DNA of 64,000 nt from Tubiluchus corallicola (lineage: Eukaryota; Animalia; Priapulida): contig JAQGDQ010000440.1 of NCBI GenBank assembly GCA_030141605.1, forward strand, positions 58,429 to 122,428. Direction: 5' to 3'. The notes under the pieces were generated by a model that saw nothing but the letters and a program-made list of their open reading frames with translations, made no database searches and was not told where the DNA came from. The translations under genes and the position numbers were made by a program. Positions 1,272-14,275 of the stretch are shown one piece after another (position 1 is the first letter of the stretch; each line of letters begins with the position of its first letter).

Positions 1272-1360
1272 AAAAAAAACCCTCGCTAATGCGAGGGTAC
1301 AGGCTATTTTACTAACCTTCGGCATAAAGCCTTATTGTGATAAGAACTCAAATTTAAAAA
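1272..1360 (-). ncRNA. tracrRNA of the type II-C system
   Basis: Minus strand reads AUUUGAGUU-CUU-AUCACAAU, which pairs with repeat GUUGUGGU..GACUCAAAU around a bulge. It is followed by a nexus-like AAGGCUUUAUGCCG and a terminal hairpin CCCUCGC-AUUA-GCGAGGG plus U8. Confidence 0.9.
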
Positions 1361-1401
1361 ACTGTTTCTCTCAAAACCGTTTTTTTCTTAGAAACTTACG
1401 T

Positions 1402-1578: not shown

Positions 1579-4500
1579 ATGGGCACAAAAATTTTAGGAC
1601 TGGACTTAGGCACAAACAGTATCGGATGGGCTGTTATCGATAAAGAGAATGAAAAGATTTTAGATACAGGGGTACGAATATTTCCCGAAGGGCTGGAATT
1701 GAATAGCATCGGAAAAGGAGACAAAGAGCAGTCCAAGAACAAAACACGAAGGGATAATAGGCAGATGCGAAGGCAGTTTTACAGAAAGCGGCTACGCAAA
1801 ATAAAGCTTCTGGAGGCGCTTATAGACCAACAAATGTGCCCTCTTAAACATGACGAACTAAACAGTTGGAAAAAATGGGACAGGCAGGGCAAAGCTGAAG
1901 CCAGAAAATTCCCAAACTCCGAAAAGTTTGCCGAATGGATAAAACTCAACCCATACGACCTGAGGGAAAAAGCTATCACAGAGCAGGTATCCCATTTTGA
2001 ACTGGGAAGGATACTGTACCATATGATACAGAGGCGCGGGTTTCTGAGCAACAGAAAAGAAAAAAAGGACCCGGCATCCATGAAAATATTTACAACAGGA
2101 AACTCCGATGAAAACATCCTGCCGATAAGCAAGACCAAAGAAAAAATAGCAAACTCATCATTGGGCAGCTATCTGAAGAGTATCACCCCTGTCGACGGAG
2201 AACCATTCAGGCAGGTAACCGATGAAAACGGCAGCGACCTAAGGGCAAGGGGGCGATACACCTCCAGGGATATGTACATATCCGAATTTGAGAAAATATG
2301 GCAAACACAAAAAGCCTTCTCCGATATAGACAGGCGTAGTGTGGAGGCCCGAAAAGTGAGAGAGCTAAAAGGAGATATAAACGGAAGCAGAAATCGCAAA
2401 AAAATAGCACACCTATGGGAAAAATACGGAAACAGCAATGTTACCATTGGCGAAAAAGACTCAAAAGGAGTAACAAAAGTAACCACTCTCTCCCGTGTGC
2501 CGCTAAAGCAGTTCCTCGCAGGAAACATTAAGGAGGTGGAGAATGAAAACGGAGAAAAAATGCTTCAGTTCAAAAGCAACGAAAGCGTGCTCTTCTGGCA
2601 ACGCCCGCTACGATCACAAAAAGAGCTGCTCTCCAACTGCAAATATGAAAACCAGCTGCCGGTTATCAATGCCGACGGTAAATACCTGAAAAAATCAAAT
2701 GGGGATATACAGACACGAAGTAAAAAACCGTGTGCCCTGTCACACCCCGAATTTGAACTATTCAGAGCACACAAATTCATAAACAACATAAAGTACGGAA
2801 TAGAAAACAGACCCCTGAACAGGGAGCAGAAAACAGAGGTGCTTGCCCTGATAAACAGCAAAGCAGGAAACTTTAACTTCTCGGAAATACCAAAAAAACT
2901 AAGCCTGACTTACGAAAAATTCAACTACAATGATACGGACAAGGTGCCCGGAAGCACAACCATAAAACAGCTCAAACCACTCTTTGATACCCAGGTGTGG
3001 GAAAACAGCTACAAGGAGATATGGCACTGCTTCTACAACTACGAAGACAGCGATAAGCTGCTGGAAAAACTGCAAAAAGATTACGGCTTTAAAAAGGGGC
3101 TCGATACGGTAGAAAAGATTAACCTCAAGGATGGCTACTGCAACATATCCCTGAAAGCGATACGCAACATGCACCCTTTCCTTGAAAAAGGGTATATGGA
3201 AGACCGTGCAGCAATACTCGGAGGTGTAAAAAACGCCTTCGGCAAAAAATACCTGGACAAATTTAACAACCATGCCGACAGTATAGAGCGTGATATTATC
3301 GACATACTAAACGAAAAAAATGAGGATGGCGAAGCAATTGAAAAAATTAGAGCATATCTGTCGTCACCTATATACAGCTACGGATTCTCGGAAAACGACC
3401 CCCGATTCTCTCACCTCTATCACCACAGCCGGGATATAGAAACAGAAAAAACACTGAGCGAATGGGTGCCTGAGGTGGAAAACCTGAGAAACCCTGTTGT
3501 TCAGCAGGGGATAAATGAGACAAGGAGGCTGGTAAACTCTCTGATGAGAAAGTACCGAAAACAGTTTGGAAAAGAGTTCCGTTTCGACCTGATTAAAGTC
3601 GAAATGGGGAGAGACCTGCGCAACAATAAAAAAGGGAGGCAGGAAATGTATAGAAAAAACAGAGATAACGAAAAGAAAAACGACGAAGCGCGCGAGTGCC
3701 TTCGCAGCCACGGATTACAACCGCTCCGCTCAAACATCCATAAATTCCTGCTGTTTAAAGAGATAGAGGAAAAATCAGGAAAAGCAGCCTGCCCCTATAC
3801 AGGGAAAACCATATCCATAGCCCAGCTGCTCGGAGATCACAACCACAACGACAGTATACAGATAGAACACATAATACCGCGTAGCGTGTCGCTGGACGAC
3901 AGCTTTGGCAACAAAACACTCTGCGAAGCCAACTTCAACAGGGAAAAGGGAGAAAAAACACCCTGGCAGTTCTACTGTGAAAACAGCGACCCCAACCTCT
4001 GGAACGCATCATCATGGGAAGAGGTGAAAGAGCGAGCCTTCAGCCTGCTGCCATACCCCAAAGCAAAGCGCTTTACCTCAAAAAAAGAGCTTGAATCATC
4101 ATCTTTTATCGAGAGACAGCTAAACGACAGCAGATATATTGCAAGAAAGTCTGTAGAGCTACTCTCCCATATATGCGATGATGTAAGAGTGATGCCAGGA
4201 CGACTAACAGCCGAGCTGCGACACCTGTGGGGGCTAAACAGTATACTTCAGCCTGTAAAAAACATAGATAAGCACAGCTTTGACTTTAACAATGACAATG
4301 CCATATCATGCTACTCAGTTGTCAACAAGGAGGATGAGGTGCTGTCTGTACACCCCAAAACAAACCCCCGCCCGGAAACATCCGATAGCGAGATACTCAT
4401 ACCGGGCAGGATATCGAAAAACAGGTTCTCATCAAAACTCTATAAAGTGGAGCTTCAGACACCCGACCTGAAGGACGGAAACTACTGGGCTAAATTTAAA

Positions 4501-6234
4501 GTATCGGGCACGGCAGGGCTGGTTCCCATGTTTAATAAAAAACCCCAGATTGATGAAAAGAGCATTGTCCTCAAAGGCAGTGTTGACAATGAAAAATTTA
4601 AAAGCGACACAATAAAGAATGTAGAAGCAACAGAGCCGGAGGGCAAGTACTGGGCAAGGTTTGAGATCGAAGATAAAAAATTTGAAGAGCCGCAAAAAAG
4701 CAAACAGCCCAGATTCAGCAAAAAAAACCAGATTCTGCTATACGGTACAGTAACCGGGGGTGAGTTCAAAAGCTACATCTACAGATGCAGCACCAACCTT
4801 CCCGATGGCAACTACTGGATAGTACTGACCCTCAACACAGAAAACACAAAGTTTACCCGCATACTAAATGATGCTCCCGAAATAAATGGCAACCAACTGC
4901 TAATCACAGCCACGGTAGACGACTCGGGAGAGCTAAGCGCCGATGAAGACAAGGGCTTCAACATGGAAACATCTGAAGAGTCAGGAAAATACTACGCAAC
5001 ACTGAATATTGAGTCGGCAACGCCCGATCTGCACAAAATGGATAACCCCCCTCCCGAGACGGGCAAAGGGGAAAGAGTTGTAGAGGGAAACATCTGGGCA
5101 GACAGTGACACCGGAGATATCAAATTCGACCCCGTAAAAAACAGGGAAGATCACCGCCACCACGCTATAGATGCAATCACTATAGCACTTACAGAGCGGG
5201 GATTTCTACAACGCCTGAGCACAGAAAACGCCAGAAGAGAGGAGAAAAAACGGGGTAACTTCACAAACAGCACAGAAAAGTACCCCGAACCGTGGCAGGG
5301 GTTTGTGTCGGATGCCAAAAATGCTGTAGAGACCATCCTGACATCTCATAAAAAGAGCTATAAAGGGATCACAAAAAACAGAAAAGGGTACAGCGTGCGA
5401 GGGCCGCTGCACAAAGATACTGTGTATGGCAAAAGGCAGGCTCCCGGCCAGGAAGAAGGCTTTCACCAAAGAGTGAAAATCACCAGCTTGGAAAACAATA
5501 AGCATATAGGTAAAATCGTAGACAAAACCATTCAGAAACTGGTTAGAGACCACCTGCAAGACAAGCTCGGTATCGATGTTGCCAACCCCAAAGGGTTCAA
5601 AATACCCAAAGATGCATTCTTTAAAGATGGAAAGTGGAGGCTCTCCCTCTGCAATAAAAAAGGTGGAGAGAGAGTACCCATAAAGAAGGTGCGCATAAAG
5701 AAAACTATAGGCAATGCAGTTAAGCTAAAATCCGATATAAACCAACACGTTAATCCTCAAAATAACCACCACACACTTATCTATAAAGATAGTGAGGGGA
5801 ACCTGCATGAGGATGTAGTGCTGTTCTGGACAGCAGTGGAAAGAAAGCTCCAAAAAATGCCGGTGTACCAGATGCCCCGGAAAGGTAAAGAGATCGTTAC
5901 AGTTATGGAGATCAACGATATGTTCCTGCTGGGCATATCAGATGAGGAGTTTGAAGCAAACAGGCACAACTATAGATACCTGAGCAAACACCTCTACAGG
6001 GTTCAGAAGTGCTCATCCGGCAACTATAATTTCAGGCACCATCTGGCTTCAACCATCAACAACGATGAACAGCTGGTGCGTATAAGTAGCTTTAAAAGCT
6101 GGGAAAAGGTAAACCCTATCAAAGTAAAAGTAAATGAGCTTGGAGAGATTGTAGAGGCACAGCACAAAGAATGCGGTCAGAGGCGGGTATACTCTGCACA
6201 CCCTCCATCCAAAAAAACCGTCAGCACCATGTAG
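1579..6234 (+). CDS. cas9: type II-C Cas9 (1551 aa) with a large repeat insertion in RuvC-III
   Basis: GLDLGTNSIG (RuvC-I), Arg-rich bridge helix, LRNPVV..VEMGRD (RuvC-II), CPYTG..IEHIIPRS..NKTLC..N..KG (HNH), RQLNDSRY, DHRHHAIDA (RuvC-III); followed by cas1-cas2 with no csn2 or cas4. Confidence 0.98.
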   Translation: MGTKILGLDLGTNSIGWAVIDKENEKILDTGVRIFPEGLELNSIGKGDKEQSKNKTRRDNRQMRRQFYRKRLRKIKLLEALIDQQMCPLKHDELNSWKKWDRQGKAEARKFPNSEKFAEWIKLNPYDLREKAITEQVSHFELGRILYHMIQRRGFLSNRKEKKDPASMKIFTTGNSDENILPISKTKEKIANSSLGSYLKSITPVDGEPFRQVTDENGSDLRARGRYTSRDMYISEFEKIWQTQKAFSDIDRRSVEARKVRELKGDINGSRNRKKIAHLWEKYGNSNVTIGEKDSKGVTKVTTLSRVPLKQFLAGNIKEVENENGEKMLQFKSNESVLFWQRPLRSQKELLSNCKYENQLPVINADGKYLKKSNGDIQTRSKKPCALSHPEFELFRAHKFINNIKYGIENRPLNREQKTEVLALINSKAGNFNFSEIPKKLSLTYEKFNYNDTDKVPGSTTIKQLKPLFDTQVWENSYKEIWHCFYNYEDSDKLLEKLQKDYGFKKGLDTVEKINLKDGYCNISLKAIRNMHPFLEKGYMEDRAAILGGVKNAFGKKYLDKFNNHADSIERDIIDILNEKNEDGEAIEKIRAYLSSPIYSYGFSENDPRFSHLYHHSRDIETEKTLSEWVPEVENLRNPVVQQGINETRRLVNSLMRKYRKQFGKEFRFDLIKVEMGRDLRNNKKGRQEMYRKNRDNEKKNDEARECLRSHGLQPLRSNIHKFLLFKEIEEKSGKAACPYTGKTISIAQLLGDHNHNDSIQIEHIIPRSVSLDDSFGNKTLCEANFNREKGEKTPWQFYCENSDPNLWNASSWEEVKERAFSLLPYPKAKRFTSKKELESSSFIERQLNDSRYIARKSVELLSHICDDVRVMPGRLTAELRHLWGLNSILQPVKNIDKHSFDFNNDNAISCYSVVNKEDEVLSVHPKTNPRPETSDSEILIPGRISKNRFSSKLYKVELQTPDLKDGNYWAKFKVSGTAGLVPMFNKKPQIDEKSIVLKGSVDNEKFKSDTIKNVEATEPEGKYWARFEIEDKKFEEPQKSKQPRFSKKNQILLYGTVTGGEFKSYIYRCSTNLPDGNYWIVLTLNTENTKFTRILNDAPEINGNQLLITATVDDSGELSADEDKGFNMETSEESGKYYATLNIESATPDLHKMDNPPPETGKGERVVEGNIWADSDTGDIKFDPVKNREDHRHHAIDAITIALTERGFLQRLSTENARREEKKRGNFTNSTEKYPEPWQGFVSDAKNAVETILTSHKKSYKGITKNRKGYSVRGPLHKDTVYGKRQAPGQEEGFHQRVKITSLENNKHIGKIVDKTIQKLVRDHLQDKLGIDVANPKGFKIPKDAFFKDGKWRLSLCNKKGGERVPIKKVRIKKTIGNAVKLKSDINQHVNPQNNHHTLIYKDSEGNLHEDVVLFWTAVERKLQKMPVYQMPRKGKEIVTVMEINDMFLLGISDEEFEANRHNYRYLSKHLYRVQKCSSGNYNFRHHLASTINNDEQLVRISSFKSWEKVNPIKVKVNELGEIVEAQHKECGQRRVYSAHPPSKKTVSTM

Positions 6235-6279: not shown

Positions 6280-7173
6280 ATGCTTAAACGCACCATTTTC
6301 ATCACAAACCCCGCATATATCAGCACCCGCAATGAGCAGCTGATTATACGGCTCGACAAGCACAAAACAGAGGCTACCATACCTATTGAGGATATAGGCT
6401 TTGTGGTGATGGAGCACCCGCAAACCACCATAACCCTGCCCGCTGCGCAAAAGCTGAATGCAAACAATGTGGCGGTGGTGCTGTGCGATGAAAAACGCCA
6501 CCCCAATGCAATGCTGCTAAACCTCGACGGGCACCACCTGCAGGGAGAGCTATTCAGGCAGCAGATAGCAGCATCCCTGCCCCTGAAAAAACAGCTGTGG
6601 CAACAAACAGTCAGACAGAAGATAAAAAACCAGGCCGGCACGCTCACATCTCTAAACAAAAGTGCCGGGGCGCTACCCTCTTACGCTGCCGGGGTAAAAA
6701 GCGGAGACAGCTCCAACAGGGAGGGGGCTGCAGCAGGAGAGTACTGGAAACGGCTGTTTGGCAATGGGTTTACACGCGACAGATACGGCAGCAACCCAAA
6801 CCCGTTCCTAAACTACGGATACGCCATACTCAGGGCAGCGGTGGCAAGGGCGCTAACAGGCTCAGGACTGCTCCCAACACTCGGCATACACCACCACAAC
6901 AGGTACAACGCATTCTGCCTCGCAGATGATATAATGGAGCCATACCGCCCATTTGTAGACATAGCCGTACACAACCTCTGGAAACCACACCAGAACAGCA
7001 AACAGACCCTCGACAAGCAGATAAAAAAACATCTGCTGCAACTCCTGTCTACAGATGTGGAGATCGGCAATATAAAACGGCCGCTTATGATAGCCCTCTC
7101 CTCTACAACAGCGTCGCTGGCACGCTGCTTCGACGGTAAAGCAAAACAGATAACATACCCCGCAATAAACTAA
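6280..7173 (+). CDS. cas1: type II CRISPR-associated endonuclease Cas1
   Basis: IPIEDIG, N.EG.AA..YW, LNYGYAILRA, GIHHHNRYNAFCLADDIMEPYRP. Confidence 0.97.
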   Translation: MLKRTIFITNPAYISTRNEQLIIRLDKHKTEATIPIEDIGFVVMEHPQTTITLPAAQKLNANNVAVVLCDEKRHPNAMLLNLDGHHLQGELFRQQIAASLPLKKQLWQQTVRQKIKNQAGTLTSLNKSAGALPSYAAGVKSGDSSNREGAAAGEYWKRLFGNGFTRDRYGSNPNPFLNYGYAILRAAVARALTGSGLLPTLGIHHHNRYNAFCLADDIMEPYRPFVDIAVHNLWKPHQNSKQTLDKQIKKHLLQLLSTDVEIGNIKRPLMIALSSTTASLARCFDGKAKQITYPAIN

Positions 7174-7186
7174 CATCCCGCCCGGC

Positions 7187-7528
7187 ATGAACTCTTACAA
7201 ACGACTAAACGCATATCACATCATGTGGCTATTTGTACTCTTCGACCTACCAACCACCACCACAAAAGAGCGAAAAGACGCAGCACGGTTCCGCAAAGGC
7301 CTTATACAGGACGGGTTCACCATGATGCAGTTCTCCGTATACACACGCCACTGCGCCAGCAAAGAAAGCAGCGAAATACACATAAAACGTGTAAAGTCGA
7401 TAATACCGGAAAGAGGGAAAATAAGCATACTGTCTATCACCGACAAACAGTACGGCAACATTGTAAACTACTGGGGTGCCAAATCAAAAAAACTGCCCGA
7501 AACACCAAGGCAACTCGAGCTGTTCTGA
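7187..7528 (+). CDS. cas2: CRISPR-associated Cas2
   Basis: MWLFVLFDLPT...FRK.LI.DGF.M.QFSVY.R...ITDKQY...QLELF. Confidence 0.97.
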   Translation: MNSYKRLNAYHIMWLFVLFDLPTTTTKERKDAARFRKGLIQDGFTMMQFSVYTRHCASKESSEIHIKRVKSIIPERGKISILSITDKQYGNIVNYWGAKSKKLPETPRQLELF

Positions 7529-7829: not shown

Positions 7830-9975
7830 GTTGTGGTTTGACTCAAATAAAAGATAAGATATACCAGCACAGCCAAAAATATACCGTGCCAAAATGTTGT
7901 GGTTTGACTCAAATAAAAGATAAGATATACCATAATAATTATACTGGCACATTTGATATTAGTTGTGGTTTGACTCAAATAAAAGATAAGATATACCAAC
8001 GAATTTGAAAGGCAAGTAACTAATAATGTTGTGGTTTGACTCAAATAAAAGATAAGATATACCTAAAACTGCTGCCACCTGTGTAAGCTCAAGTTGTGGT
8101 TTGACTCAAATAAAAGATAAGATATACCAGTTGGCGACGGCGCAACACCTTCTAACCCGTTGTGGTTTGACTCAAATAAAAGATAAGATATACCCCCCAT
8201 TCCGAGTTCCAAAAAATTATGACTGTTGTGGTTTGACTCAAATAAAAGATAAGATATACCAAACAGCACCCAGAGTAATAGCCATAGAGAGTTGTGGTTT
8301 GACTCAAATAAAAGATAAGATATACCCCCGAAGTTATTCAAGATATTTTACAAGTTGTTGTGGTTTGACTCAAATAAAAGATAAGATATACCGTTTGGGG
8401 ATATAGGCAGAGCGACGGCGTCGTTGTGGTTTGACTCAAATAAAAGATAAGATATACCTATTATCATTACGAATATTTATAATTTCGTGTTGTGGTTTGA
8501 CTCAAATAAAAGATAAGATATACCTAAATTTTTATATGAAGTTAAACAAGAGCTGTTGTGGTTTGACTCAAATAAAAGATAAGATATACCGATTATTCTG
8601 CGCGGGGACGGGAATGCCCTGTTGTGGTTTGACTCAAATAAAAGATAAGATATACCTAATAATGAACGTTATAATGTTGATTGTTTGTTGTGGTTTGACT
8701 CAAATAAAAGATAAGATATACCTTTAGAAATTGCGAAGCAACAGGCTGAAATGTTGTGGTTTGACTCAAATAAAAGATAAGATATACCATTGAGTTCCGA
8801 ATTGTCGTCCGAATTGTTGTTGTGGTTTGACTCAAATAAAAGATAAGATATACCAGAACTTAAAGAAGCAATGAAGTCAATTGAGTTGTGGTTTGACTCA
8901 AATAAAAGATAAGATATACCGCTGAAATTTACGGCAATGCTGAAATTTACGTTGTGGTTTGACTCAAATAAAAGATAAGATATACCTTAAATATTCTGCA
9001 AAATGTTCATCAATTTGTTGTGGTTTGACTCAAATAAAAGATAAGATATACCTCAGGACAATACAGGGAGCTTAAGTTTTCAGTTGTGGTTTGACTCAAA
9101 TAAAAGATAAGATATACCAATGATTCTATCATTACAACAAATGCTGCGGTTGTGGTTTGACTCAAATAAAAGATAAGATATACCATGGGGTAGATATGGA
9201 GATGGCGGAAGAATGTTGTGGTTTGACTCAAATAAAAGATAAGATATACCTGGCGCACCCGAATTATATGCATTAATTATGTTGTGGTTTGACTCAAATA
9301 AAAGATAAGATATACCGGATGTATCATGGATAGATGAAAGAGGTATGTTGTGGTTTGACTCAAATAAAAGATAAGATATACCCCCCATTCCGAGTTCCAA
9401 AAAATTATGACTGTTGTGGTTTGACTCAAATAAAAGATAAGATATACCGAAAAATGATAACGGGCACATGATGCGATAGTTGTGGTTTGACTCAAATAAA
9501 AGATAAGATATACCATAGTTTTTGTTGATTATTATGCTCGGGGAGTTGTGGTTTGACTCAAATAAAAGATAAGATATACCGAAAGATATAGAAAAATATT
9601 CGAACAGCAGTTGTGGTTTGACTCAAATAAAAGATAAGATATACCAGATAGCACCAATAGTTGTATCGGGTTCTGGTTGTGGTTTGACTCAAATAAAAGA
9701 TAAGATATACCGGCAAAAACACCCCGCCCGATTGCACTACCGTTGTGGTTTGACTCAAATAAAAGATAAGATATACCTATTTTCCGTCACAACGTATTTG
9801 GCATTTGGTTGTGGTTTGACTCAAATAAAAGATAAGATATACCTTTTGTAGGGGTAAAATTGTAAAATCTGATGTTGTGGTTTGACTCAAATAAAAGATA
9901 AGATATACCTTTTGTTAAAACTTAACGTTGGGTTAATATGTTGTGGTTTGACTCAAATAAAAGATAAGATATACC
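7830..9975 (+). CRISPR. CRISPR array: 33 identical 36-bp repeats GTTGTGGTTTGACTCAAATAAAAGATAAGATATACC and 32 spacers (30 bp; two are 29 bp)
   Basis: 66-bp period read directly; + orientation inferred from complementarity to the tracrRNA anti-repeat. Confidence 0.98.
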
Positions 9976-10058: not shown

Positions 10059-10838
10059 TTATATCTCTTTTTTACAATGAGGACAAACCTGTTTCTCTTT
10101 TTTGACTCTCTCCAAAAATCCGAAACTAATAATACCTGTAGGCAAAGCAACTATCCCTATACTCAATACAGCAATAATACCACTTATAAGCTTACCCCAA
10201 CCTGTAACAGGTGTTACATCTCCATAACCTATCGTAGTCAAAGTAATAACAGCCCACCAAAGCGTACTCAACACATTAGGGAAAACATCAGGCTGAGCCT
10301 CTCGCTCAACGTGATACATCAAAAATGAAGATAATGCCAATACAAATACAATAACAAACAGTATCGTTCCCAGCTCCGACCTTTTTGCCTTTACCACATC
10401 CCATATAACTATCATAGAACTATTGTATTTGTTCAGCTTTAAAAGCCTAAAAAGCCTTGAAAGTCTTAAAACCTCCAACGACTTTAAATTCATCCTAGTA
10501 AACAAGAACAAATAAAAAGGGAAAATGGCAAGTAAGTCTACAAGACCATAAAATGAAAATACAAACTTTAACACTGAGCGCAACCTGCTTTTCGAAGGAT
10601 GTGTCAAATCTGAAATATACAACCGAAGCAAATACTCAATAGAAAATATTACAGAAGCTATAATCTCAGATACAATAAAAAACCTGACAAGGGATTCATT
10701 ATCACTTTGCATCGTAAGAATAGCGATAGAAATAACATTGAAGAGAATAAGCCCAATAATAAAATAATCAACGTACAAATTATACTTAGAGCTGTGAGAA
10801 CCTTTTTCTAATAGTTTATATATTTTGTATTTTAACAT
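10059..10838 (-). CDS. 6TM voltage-gated potassium channel (ion transporter)
   Basis: S4-like LRLSRLFRLLKL, pore WWAVITLTTIGYGDVTP, C-terminal CPHC. Confidence 0.92.
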   Translation of the reverse strand: MLKYKIYKLLEKGSHSSKYNLYVDYFIIGLILFNVISIAILTMQSDNESLVRFFIVSEIIASVIFSIEYLLRLYISDLTHPSKSRLRSVLKFVFSFYGLVDLLAIFPFYLFLFTRMNLKSLEVLRLSRLFRLLKLNKYNSSMIVIWDVVKAKRSELGTILFVIVFVLALSSFLMYHVEREAQPDVFPNVLSTLWWAVITLTTIGYGDVTPVTGWGKLISGIIAVLSIGIVALPTGIISFGFLERVKKEKQVCPHCKKEI

Positions 10839-10927
10839 TATATAATGTAAGTATAAAATTTCCGAAATACTACTGTTAACCAGGCATTTATATCAAAACT
10901 CAAACCTGCACCTCTTCACTAAAGCTT

Positions 10928-11797
10928 CTACTCAAAAATAATTGTCTTATTCTTAAACGTAAGAATCTTCCTTGTAATATGTTTCTGTACAGCATCCGAA
11001 AGCACTATCTTCTCTAAATCCCTACCCTTTTCAATCAACCTACTCACATCATTCTTATGCGATATATGAGCTATATCCTGCCCTATAATAGGCCCTGCGT
11101 CCAACTCATCTGTCACATAATGACTTGTTGCACCTATCAGTTTTACTCCTCGCTCGTGTGCAGCGTGATAAGGCTTTGCCCCTACAAACGCAGGCAGAAA
11201 CGAATGGTGTATATTGATTATTCTATTCGGATACCTACTTATTACTTTATTGGTAAGTATCTGCATATACCTTGCCAACACTATAAAATCTACTCTATAG
11301 CTTTCTAACAATTTTAAGATTTTTCCCTCCTGATCTTCCTTGTTTTCTTTTGTTATAGGAAAACAATGGTAATCTATATTGAATCGCTTAGCTACTTCCT
11401 CTAAATCAGGATGATTGCTCACTACGAGTGGAATCTCCACGCTCCACTCACAGTTTTTATAACGTGCCAACATATCATACAAGCAGTGAGACATCTTAGA
11501 TACAAAGACCGCCATACGCGAAGCATTTTCGGAGAAGTAAATACTACAGACCATTTTGTACTTAGCAGAAAACTCCGCATCAAAAACCTCCTCAATTTTT
11601 TCTTTGGATATACAAAACTCTTCCAACTCCCACTCCACCCTCATAAAAAAAGCCTTTTCTGGTATATCTACATGCTGGTCGAGATAAATGATATTACCCC
11701 CATTTTGATTAATAAAATCAGTAATAGAAGCAAGAATACCTTTCTGGTCGGGACAAGACAGTAACAAAATAGCCGTGCTCTTTTGCCTATTTACCAT
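10928..11797 (-). CDS. purU: formyltetrahydrofolate deformylase
   Basis: ACT domain CPDQKGI, VSKMSHCL, VLARYMQIL, INIHHSFLPAFVGAKPY, GATSHYVT.ELD.GPII. Confidence 0.96.
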   Translation of the reverse strand: MVNRQKSTAILLLSCPDQKGILASITDFINQNGGNIIYLDQHVDIPEKAFFMRVEWELEEFCISKEKIEEVFDAEFSAKYKMVCSIYFSENASRMAVFVSKMSHCLYDMLARYKNCEWSVEIPLVVSNHPDLEEVAKRFNIDYHCFPITKENKEDQEGKILKLLESYRVDFIVLARYMQILTNKVISRYPNRIINIHHSFLPAFVGAKPYHAAHERGVKLIGATSHYVTDELDAGPIIGQDIAHISHKNDVSRLIEKGRDLEKIVLSDAVQKHITRKILTFKNKTIIFE

Positions 11798-11934
11798 ACT
11801 CTTTAATTAATTTTTATAGTAATTCTCAAAACAACTATTCATTCATTTAATCCAGCTCTACTTCTAAATATATTAGGTAGTTACAGGCTAAATTGCTTTA
11901 TAAAGAACATAAGCTCACACTCTTGCAAAAAAAA

Positions 11935-12428
11935 TCAGACTGTACTATCCATCTCCTTTTTACATCGGGAGCAAACCTGCTGTTGCTTATTAAGCTTCCC
12001 CAAAAAACCCGCACTTATAATCCCTGTGGGTAACGCAATTATTCCAATGCCTAAAATAGCAATTATTCCCTTAATAAGTTTACCTGAGCTCGTTATTGGA
12101 ACCACATCAGTTCCTGCTTTTGTTAATGTTGTAAGAGACCACCACAATGAACTCAAAGTATTAGGGAAAGCTTCAGGCTGCACATCACTCTCTATATAAT
12201 AAATTAGAAATGACGCTACTACTATAATCAATAATACTAAGAACAAAGTCATTGCCAACTCTAATCTTTTTTCTTTTATCACCGTTGTTATAATATCCAC
12301 TGACCTACTATATCGTTCTAATTTCAAAACCCTTAGAAACCTTATCAATCTTAATATTCTCAGAAATTTTAAATCCACTTTTATAAGAAACGGAATATAA
12401 AAAGGCAAAATGGCAGCAAATCTACTAC
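11935..12428 (-). pseudogene. 5'-truncated paralog of the K+ channel with an altered pore motif
   Basis: S3-S6 homology to 10059-10838; a 1-nt frameshift in VDLLAILPF near 12415; homology stops near 12428 at low-complexity DNA; pore reads TTLTKAGTD. Confidence 0.8.
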
Positions 12429-12589
12429 ACCTACTCCCCACCTACACTACGCACCTCCACACCCTCAAACACACCTAAAAACGTAGTCTCACCTATCGCC
12501 TTGAACATATCTGCCATATCTTTCCCCCAAGCAATATCTCCTAAACTTGTTGAGCCGTTGTAAGCTGCTCTTCACCGTGTGTCATCACA

Positions 12590-12918: not shown

Positions 12919-14275
12919 CAATAGTTCGTTAAACATTTACATAAATATCTGACAATCAATAAAATAAATGTTGAAAAAATTAGGATAATCCCCCTGATAA
13001 TCAGTATCTTAAAGTTGTTTTTGACCGACAATTTTAGACATGATTATCAAGGAAATATCAAGATATAAAGATCAGGTAAAAATGATTTTAAACCAAATGG
13101 AAGGAATAAATAAGTGGCAATTCGATTTTATGCTAGACATCTTCGGACTATTTCTTAGTATCAAAGGAAAGATGAACTTTTTTCAATTTGGTAGATATGG
13201 AAATCACTGTGAGCAACGTTATAGATATCAATTTGAAAAAGGGTTTGATTTTATGACTTTTAACAAAGAGTCGGTAATCCATTACGCAAGCAACCATCAA
13301 GCCATAGCCTTTGATCCAAGCTATATAAGCAAGTCAGGAAAGCATACATCTGGGGCTGGTTACTTTTGGTCAGGATGTGCCGGCAAAACAAAATGGGGCT
13401 TAGAGATTGCAGGAATAGCAGCCGTTGATATTGATAATCATACAGCTTTTCATTTAGAAGCTATTCAAACCCCTAATAATCTTGAAGCAGAAAGTCTGGT
13501 TGATCATTACGCAAATGTTTTGATTCAACGCAAGGACAATCTGTTATGTGTATCAAAATACGTTTTGGCAGATGCCTATTTTTCAAAGAATAAGTTTGTA
13601 ACCAAGCTTTGCGAAAATGGATTTGAAGTGATTAGTCGCCTGAGAGATGATGCTAACTTACAATACAAATTTTATGGTCAGCAAAAAGCTGGTAGAGGAA
13701 GACCTAGAAAATATGAAGGAAAGATTGACTTTGATAATTTAAAATCAAAATATTTTGAATGCTTTGAGCAAAACGAAAAATGCAAAATATACGGAGCAAC
13801 AGTTTATGCAAAATCATTAAAACGAGATGTTAATCTTGTTGTTGTTTTTACAAAAGGAACATCCCGAAAGTGGTCTCACAAGTTATACTTCTCTACTGAT
13901 TTGCAAATGAAAGCCGAGACGATTCTTGAATATTATCAAGCCAGATTCCAGATTGAGTTCATTTACAGAGATGCAAAACAATATACCGGATTGAAAGACT
14001 GTCAGGCAAGAAGTGAAAATAAATTACATTTTCATTTTAATGCGTCTCTTACTGCAGTCAATTTGGCCAAGATTAACCACTGGTTAGCTATACCAAAAAT
14101 CAATAGAAATGCTTTTTCTATGGCCGATATAAAAACAATGTATCACAATGAATTACTGCTAAATAGATTTTTTAGCGTGTTCGCGGTGAGACCAAACTTA
14201 ACCAAAAATAAATCCAAAATCAGAGAATTAATAACTTACGGCACTATCGCTGCATGATTATTTAACGAACTATTG
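12919..14275 (+). mobile_element. IS4-like insertion sequence, apparently intact
   Basis: Perfect 15-bp terminal inverted repeats CAATAGTTCGTTAAA (12919-12933 and 14261-14275), 6-bp target duplication TAAAAA, single DDE transposase. Confidence 0.9.
13040..14257 (+). CDS. DDE transposase (IS4/IS701-like)
   Basis: AFDPSYISKSGK, LADAYF, GRGRPRKY, Y..RFQIEF.YRDAKQ (YREK-like motif). Confidence 0.92.
   Translation: MIIKEISRYKDQVKMILNQMEGINKWQFDFMLDIFGLFLSIKGKMNFFQFGRYGNHCEQRYRYQFEKGFDFMTFNKESVIHYASNHQAIAFDPSYISKSGKHTSGAGYFWSGCAGKTKWGLEIAGIAAVDIDNHTAFHLEAIQTPNNLEAESLVDHYANVLIQRKDNLLCVSKYVLADAYFSKNKFVTKLCENGFEVISRLRDDANLQYKFYGQQKAGRGRPRKYEGKIDFDNLKSKYFECFEQNEKCKIYGATVYAKSLKRDVNLVVVFTKGTSRKWSHKLYFSTDLQMKAETILEYYQARFQIEFIYRDAKQYTGLKDCQARSENKLHFHFNASLTAVNLAKINHWLAIPKINRNAFSMADIKTMYHNELLLNRFFSVFAVRPNLTKNKSKIRELITYGTIAA

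Follow-up and report, generated by a model that had tools for sequence, protein, structure and literature searches.

The 64,000-nucleotide (nt) stretch of contig JAQGDQ010000440.1 from the Tubiluchus corallicola assembly GCA_030141605.1, which we will refer to as the window, carries a CRISPR locus of type II-C whose Cas9 contains a large insert of five similar units in the RuvC-III loop. The insert is a real and conserved domain, apparently one not described before, and the type II-C system that houses it is otherwise ordinary. We tentatively favour the view that the insert is a non-catalytic arm which, at the RuvC site, holds on to the displaced DNA strand or to duplex nearby. Growth of Cas9 domains has mostly been discussed for the recognition lobe (PMC11871365), whereas here apparently active enzymes carry a domain of about 300 residues within the nuclease, a few residues away from a catalytic histidine.

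Boundaries, repeat units and conservation of the insert

The all-beta insert spans amino acids (aa) 891-1186 of Cas9 (4249..5136, + strand) and ends 8 residues before the catalytic H1195. Exactly 296 aa separate the HLWGLNSIL helix from KNREDHRHHAIDA, the motif holding this histidine, and G[NK]Y[WY] motifs begin at 4477, 4642, 4807 and 4984 with periods of 55, 55 and 59 aa, precisely as an earlier, sequence-only reading of this DNA had claimed. That reading took the motifs for tandem repeats, which is borne out by off-diagonal self-alignment of the insert (best score 157, against 32.7 +/- 5.2 and a maximum of 58 for shuffles, 0 of 100 reaching 157) and by profile-profile comparison of the four whole modules, where all six pairs match at 97-99% probability. 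The pieces at the two ends matched weakly in a first alignment, the front piece at 85% probability or less and the back piece at 13% or less. In an alignment of 185 rows the N-terminal back half matches the other back halves at 95, 85, 68 and 12%, and the C-terminal front half matches the other front halves at 83, 75, 47 and 13%. Because the end pieces match module halves in this larger alignment, we consider the insert to consist of five units of about 55 aa, one of which is split over both ends, and the split fifth module suggested earlier is thereby supported.

Along the chain, with all positions on the + strand, these are the first half of the split unit (insert aa 1-40; 4249..4368), module 1 (aa 41-97; 4369..4539, motif at 4477), modules 2 and 3 (aa 98-208; 4540..4872, motifs at 4642 and 4807), module 4 (aa 209-267; 4873..5049, motif at 4984) and the second half of the split unit (aa 268-296; 5050..5136), a hairpin that is the best conserved part among close relatives. 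The two halves of the split unit are predicted to build together a base barrel resembling the anti-CRISPR AcrIIC1, module 1 is predicted to partner module 4, and modules 2 and 3 are predicted to form an intertwined OB/TOBE-like pair at the distal end of a rod. The insert is acidic overall, with a net charge of -10 in the window Cas9 and a family mean of -5.2, and module 4 has a family mean of -5. Modules 2 and 3 contain its most basic segment; module 2 has a family mean of +2.3, and lysine or arginine is kept at insert positions 98, 109, 111, 114 and 155. The best conserved residues of the insert are glycine, proline and aromatic positions, which look structural.

A recent duplication is rejected as the origin of the insert, as similarity between modules at the DNA level is confined to a single 26-nt stretch and the GC content (0.457) is near that of the remainder of cas9 (0.445). 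Misassembly is likewise rejected: more than 100 homologs carry the insert, and both junctions are bridged by contigs of a second run, which comes from the same sample and is not independent. The insert diverges faster than the nuclease core, with 43% identity versus 63-76%. The ratio of nonsynonymous to synonymous substitution rates (dN/dS) is 0.10-0.15 for the insert in 9 of 12 pairs, the other three being saturated, and 0.03-0.09 for the core, the pairs overlapping; in most pairs the insert also lies below the C-terminal region. These ratios indicate that the insert is under purifying selection, and together with its conservation they agree with the earlier view that the repeats are old and have been retained. 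The insert matches no Pfam family at E 1, its profile finds no PDB sequence at E 10, the sole NCBIfam row scores 15 bits against a cut-off of 370, and in the PDB matches to known Cas9 structures the best-matching stretch is never in the insert (0 of 39). Two of the objections that the sequence-only reading had anticipated, misassembly and failure of the internal repeat, fall away, and the third, identity with a known Cas9 domain, finds no support in these database matches. The titles and abstract openings of the papers found contain no description of the insert, although a survey by Zhang et al. 2024 (Nature 630:484), which reportedly covers the growth of Cas9 domains, might mention it.

Distribution of the insert and relatives with a single unit

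A word search with the insert sequence finds 24 Cas9s, and pattern scans find 46 genome loci, nearly all titled Bacteroidota or Chlorobi, and 43 metagenome loci; since the scan pattern was a motif of the insert, these scans favour close members. Gelidibacter maritimus (L019) is a cultured, harmless carrier. Searching 1.84 billion representatives with the insert profile yields 39 proteins, 37 of which match Cas9 outside the insert. The other two are a 60-aa piece ending in a RuvC motif and a cadherin-repeat adhesin with a weak match (E 1.8e-6, summed over 8 stretches) that the pooled unit profile does not recover. A possible immunoglobulin or cadherin origin of the insert was considered on account of this lone adhesin match, which is not reproduced; there is no Pfam match. 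The insert always lies inside cas9 in the profile searches, with no stand-alone gene on a mobile element, and none was found in viral contigs or in phage or plasmid records. It was found only in Cas9, a point on which the earlier reading had asked for a check.

A search with the Cas9 core only gave 616 matches, the best 120 of which include 101 new proteins. In 100 of these the insert covers at least 250 profile positions, and in the last one, a protein of 1005 aa, 117. The length of the insert could be measured in 119 of 125 proteins and is nearly fixed at 280-334 aa (293-302 aa in 115 of the 119), and five-unit members diverge to as little as 36% identity in the N-terminal part. Of 127 full-length five-unit members, 126-127 retain the catalytic residues. 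As proposed in the earlier reading, the insert defines a group of Cas9s, with members in Bacteroidota and Chlorobi. An even draw of 400 genomes across the phylum Bacteroidota, not counting the centre genome, gave 69 with a Cas9 above cut-off and 70 loci; two loci have the five-unit insert, two a single unit, and the rest short linkers where the pattern could measure them. The five-unit form is thus rare. The distance from the W to the HH of the flanking motifs is 310 aa in the window Cas9 versus 12-97 aa in other Bacteroidota Cas9s, where measurable.

The anti-repeat motif of the predicted trans-activating CRISPR RNA (tracrRNA) of the window is present at 64 of 91 five-unit loci. We rejected the type of repeat and tracrRNA as a marker of the group, as it is common to short-linker Cas9s. 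Five short-linker Cas9s (L086, L103, L108, L109 and L114) share the repeat start and tracrRNA motif with the five-unit group, which fits the swapping of cas9 in place that has been reported for Flavobacteriales (PMC12669027). In the assemblies of four loci (L028, L037, L043 and L044) cas9 is split over several frames, through sequencing error or decay.

One member of the group has probably been studied before. GheCas9 (Gasiunas et al. 2020, PMC7606464) is described as a protein of 1525 aa in clade IX with the protospacer adjacent motif (PAM) NARWAC; the median length of the five-unit group is 1526 aa. The N-terminal motif of GheCas9 occurs in 91 of 127 five-unit proteins and in 0 of 64 others, its REC1 segment is 181 aa by our own count, it is close by eye to one of the collected proteins (P0033), and its PAM-domain group includes two database fragments with the insert. 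Judged from its first 400 or so residues, which lie upstream of the insert site, GheCas9 very probably belongs to the five-unit group. It is reported to have cut a PAM library in vitro, yielding its PAM (PMC7606464). Given this activity of a probable member, five units are likely compatible with DNA cutting, and the insert is likely no block to it. From this probable relative (PMC7606464) and the intact catalytic residues we infer RNA-guided cleavage of both DNA strands by the window Cas9. The earlier suggestion of an uncharacterised Cas9 clade probably holds only in part, as GheCas9 appears to belong to the group. Fp2Cas9 (1548 aa, PMC12609912), also considered as a characterised member, is probably not one, as the tracrRNA described for it is of another type.

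A single unit of about 64 aa occupies the same RuvC-III site in a few other Bacteroidota Cas9s, mostly of 1167-1213 aa: L060 (2551-2763, - strand), its relatives P0165-P0167, and L112 (4529-4744, + strand). Its back-half motif comes first and its front-half motif second. Against a whole unit of the five-unit insert, the single-unit profile scores 94% (E 8.5e-8); individual single-unit sequences are not significant with the pooled unit profile. The variable repeat number that had been envisaged is not what we see, as five units or one are found and no forms with two, three or four; the single-unit search gave just 3 proteins.

In a tree of the core without the insert (43 rows, a chosen subset of 93), the five-unit proteins group with three single-unit and two short-linker proteins at a support of 82/93 that does not extend to the fork inside. 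L112 is found on another branch (support 98/94), a hint that Cas9 lineages may have exchanged the domain, and a common origin of all inserts including L112 is rejected in the approximately unbiased test (p-AU 0.016). The test does not reject a single clade for the five-unit proteins (p-AU 0.37), which is no proof of such a clade. The simplest reading is that one unit grew to five, and the reverse collapse from five to one is also possible. Natural Cas9s with zero, one or five units at this site make the function of the insert directly testable.

Predicted fold and possible roles of the insert

The AlphaFold model of the insert (predicted local distance difference test, pLDDT, 89; predicted template modelling score 0.71) is purely beta, in keeping with the beta-rich accessory domain foreseen in the earlier reading. 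From the ranges of its structural matches, given below, we infer a rod that runs out and back on a base barrel made by both ends of the insert, with modules 1 and 4 and modules 2 and 3 paired. In this arrangement the base barrel takes up the four extra units after its third strand and before its fourth, a point at which the AcrIIC1-type barrel fold is said to take insertions commonly (bioRxiv 10.1101/216911). Covariation is mostly noise (129 effective sequences), although a few top pairs link modules 1 and 4 and modules 2 and 3.

Foldseek searches of the PDB with the insert and single-unit models give nothing at E 0.001 or better, and sliding clamps and RNA polymerase, which head the list for the whole insert, were set aside at TM scores of 0.15 or less. 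The ESM Atlas has no usable match for the insert; for the single unit it returns weak unnamed phage clusters (0.91-0.93) with low recognition. Matches in the wider structural search fall into three nested ranges. The whole insert (range 1-296) matches AcrIIC1 first, with Z 6.0 and 5.5 over 58 aligned residues at a root-mean-square deviation (rmsd) of 2.1-2.4. Tandem OB pairs of the TOBE/Mop kind align with range 96-206 over about 100 residues (Z 4.4-5.3, rmsd 3.6-4.7), and range 45-267 matches single OB domains of the cold-shock, S1, EF-P and ligase types (Z 3-3.8, about 50 residues). The two intertwined barrels of ModE (1h9r), ModG (1h9j) and the regulatory domains of ABC ATPases are those that the predicted pair of modules 2 and 3 resembles, without a Pfam TOBE match. 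A beta-barrel insertion in another CRISPR effector, that in Cas7 of types III-D and III-E (8s9t_E, 7wah_A), is matched in part (Z 5.2, 4.0 and 3.0); the III-D chain 8s9t_E ranks fourth for the whole insert at Z 5.2 and third for the single unit at Z 4.0. It belongs to another effector class with an RNA target and has no sequence similarity to the insert, so the likeness may be convergence. The III-Dv insertion is reported to bind guide RNA, with F307 and I355 in the matched range 267-366 holding the end of the CRISPR RNA (PMC11026444).

We tentatively favour an arm that holds nucleic acid because the insert adjoins the RuvC site, because its outermost barrels are predicted to be OB-like and keep basic residues, and because the similar III-D barrel holds guide RNA. 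The RuvC-III loop borders the non-target strand in Cas9 structures. Under this proposal both ends of the insert would form a five-stranded barrel as the base, the four units between its third and fourth strands would pair 1 with 4 and 2 with 3, and the chain would run out and back; the whole may have grown by duplication from one barrel like that of the single-unit Cas9s. The five-unit enzyme would still cut, the distal, OB-like barrels would use their conserved basic residues to grip nucleic acid, and this grip may tune R-loop stability, the cut position or product release. The natural series of unit numbers at the insert site also points to it as a place for cargo beside the displaced DNA strand, where base editors act.

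Several points weigh against such an arm. The main objection is the net acidic charge of the insert. The ligands of TOBE domains are small anions or partner proteins and not DNA, and the best match of the modelled base barrel is a protein-binding inhibitor and no nucleic-acid binder. Foldseek has no match at E 0.001 for the insert, and all matches in the structural search have Z below 8, which the tool flags as possibly a common arrangement. The nesting of the rod, as modelled, rests on the first and last aligned residues together with weak covariation. Close relatives with one unit or none exist, and a comparable insertion in type III-E is reported to be dispensable (PMC11026444).

The same match of the base barrel raises another, rather unlikely, possibility, namely that the AcrIIC1-shaped barrel is a built-in dock that weakly binds the HNH domain of its own Cas9, either keeping it parked while the R-loop is still incomplete or hiding the surface that inhibitors of the AcrIIC1 type use, with the outer barrels as a later scaffold. 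Two separate models rank AcrIIC1 first, that of the whole insert and that of the L060 single unit (made from 5 sequences, pLDDT 81). The latter gives Z 6.7 and 6.6 at an rmsd of 2.4-2.6 over 60-63 of 71 residues, with the next match at 4.0 and the others at 2.7 or less, and AcrIIC1 chains fill 8 of the top 10 Foldseek rows for it. AcrIIC1 (beta-tulip; 5vgb_B, 9j1y_B, 9j2g_B and 7x31) shares the predicted fold and strand order of both the base barrel and the single unit; 7X31 and 7X4B are identified as AcrIIC1 structures in PMC9674691. The single unit runs as three strands, a helix and two strands, the order described for AcrIIC1 (PMC5859409), and the extra units of the insert sit at the usual insertion point of the fold. 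MoeA and gephyrin, other members of the fold, score just Z 2.8-2.9, and the last hairpin of the insert, which contributes to the predicted barrel, is its best conserved part among close relatives. However, distant members differ in that hairpin, and its motif served to find some of the loci. The Foldseek E-values are 0.21-0.98, and the AcrIIC1 fold is present also in capsid and metabolic proteins. AcrIIC1 is a free phage protein whereas the insert barrel is part of Cas9, and sequence similarity between them is not detectable: identity is 7-14% in the structural rows, no AcrIIC1 chain is found at E 10 with either profile, and the single unit has no Foldseek match at E 0.001 among viral structure models and no useful phage match. 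Since a probable member of the group cuts DNA, the dock cannot be a strong inhibitor.

A related suggestion, which we consider improbable and which draws on the same models, is that Cas9 and AcrIIC1 share a domain: an AcrIIC1-type barrel by HNH and RuvC would have been amplified to five units and would act as a brake or an anti-inhibitor shield on its own HNH, being either a captured anti-CRISPR or the source from which AcrIIC1 arose as a piece of Cas9. Should the likeness reflect ancestry or HNH binding, it would bear on the origins of anti-CRISPRs and on self-regulation or shielding of Cas9.

The net acidic stem and the large rigid surface of the rod would also suit a scaffold or shield that faces proteins, blocking phage inhibitors near RuvC and HNH, recruiting Cas1-Cas2 or a host partner, or joining two Cas9s. 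The barrel fold has been described as a protein-interaction motif (10.1101/216911), and PcrIIC1 is a reported precedent for accessory regulation of a Bacteroidota II-C Cas9 (PMC13153721). We nevertheless doubt this explanation, as there is no conserved accessory gene in the 46 related loci, the genes between cas9 and cas1 differ by locus, and dN/dS of the insert is low and steady with no sign of an arms race, the ratio being pairwise and not site-wise.

Least likely, in our view, is that a barrel landed in a permissive loop, duplicated, and was kept since partial loss would misfold a nested rod, so that the insert at most stabilises the protein. The absence of the five-unit form from 68 of 70 sampled Bacteroidota Cas9 loci, the nesting of relatives with one unit or none beside the five-unit group, the structural look of the best conserved residues and the faster divergence of the insert than of the core are all consistent with it, but five units are kept down to 36% identity, 100 of the 101 new relatives among the best 120 of 616 core-only matches carry the full insert, and the single-unit relatives suggest a clean route of loss that is yet rarely taken.

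The cas9 locus and its surroundings

The gene for the window Cas9 (1579..6234, + strand; 1551 aa) is of type II-C, with matches to TIGR01865 (499 bits), PF18541 and PF13395, and its catalytic residues D9, E675, H764, N778, N787, H1195 and D1198 are all present. It is followed on the same strand by cas1 of type II (NMENI; 6280..7173, TIGR03639 at 298 bits), cas2 (7187..7528, TIGR01573 and PF09827), both above cut-offs, and a CRISPR array (7830..9975) in which 33 exact repeats of 36 nt alternate with 32 spacers of 29-30 nt. A degenerate last repeat copy stands directly past the array end. One spacer is present twice, at about 8196-8225 and 9384-9413, and the spacers have no match elsewhere within the window. 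A predicted tracrRNA lies upstream of cas9 on the - strand (1272..1362, ends inferred), with the anti-repeat at about 1334-1362, a 3' hairpin at 1279-1298 and a U-run at 1272-1279; the repeat:anti-repeat duplex is predicted from the sequence at -20.6 kcal/mol.

The order cas9-cas1-cas2-array leaves no space for a further gene, and there is no csn2 or cas4. The intact RuvC and HNH residues, cas1 and cas2, the predicted tracrRNA and the homogeneous array that the sequence-only reading had listed are thus all confirmed. Its proposal of a new system is not, as the locus is an ordinary type II-C cas9-cas1-cas2 system and no partner gene recurs in the 46 related loci. These features are shared with known type II-C systems, and the best PDB sequence matches of the window Cas9 are CbCas9 (8iyq), Nme1Cas9 (6jdq) and a GeoCas9-type protein (9ar4), at E 1e-35 to 1e-31. 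Cas9 systems associated with PcrIIC1 have a PIN-domain accessory gene, in contrast to the 46 five-unit-related loci, where no such partner recurs, and to the window, where none is present.

In 13 of 27 loci with both genes on one strand, cas1 begins 50 nt or less after cas9; the intervening genes vary by locus. Transposase-like genes of the IS200 type (REP-associated) often lie between the two (L001, L003, L005-L007, L011, L014, L021, L033 and L039), one of them with a weak PF01797 score and another without a Pfam match. In 6 loci cas9 is followed by a member of a second family, of about 217 aa (for example L007:5382-6035).

Elsewhere in Cas9, the REC1 segment (about 2030-2600 in the window, aa 150-340) is longer in the five-unit group, mostly 165-195 aa between two motifs versus 104-105 aa in single-unit relatives, and is a second expansion in this group. 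The window Cas9 has a C-terminal tail of about 25-30 residues (about 6150-6234), and many close relatives are 1514-1530 aa long. Immediately past the array, two similar ion-channel genes flank a formyltransferase-ACT gene (10059-12441, 13040-14257), and a DDE transposase gene follows.

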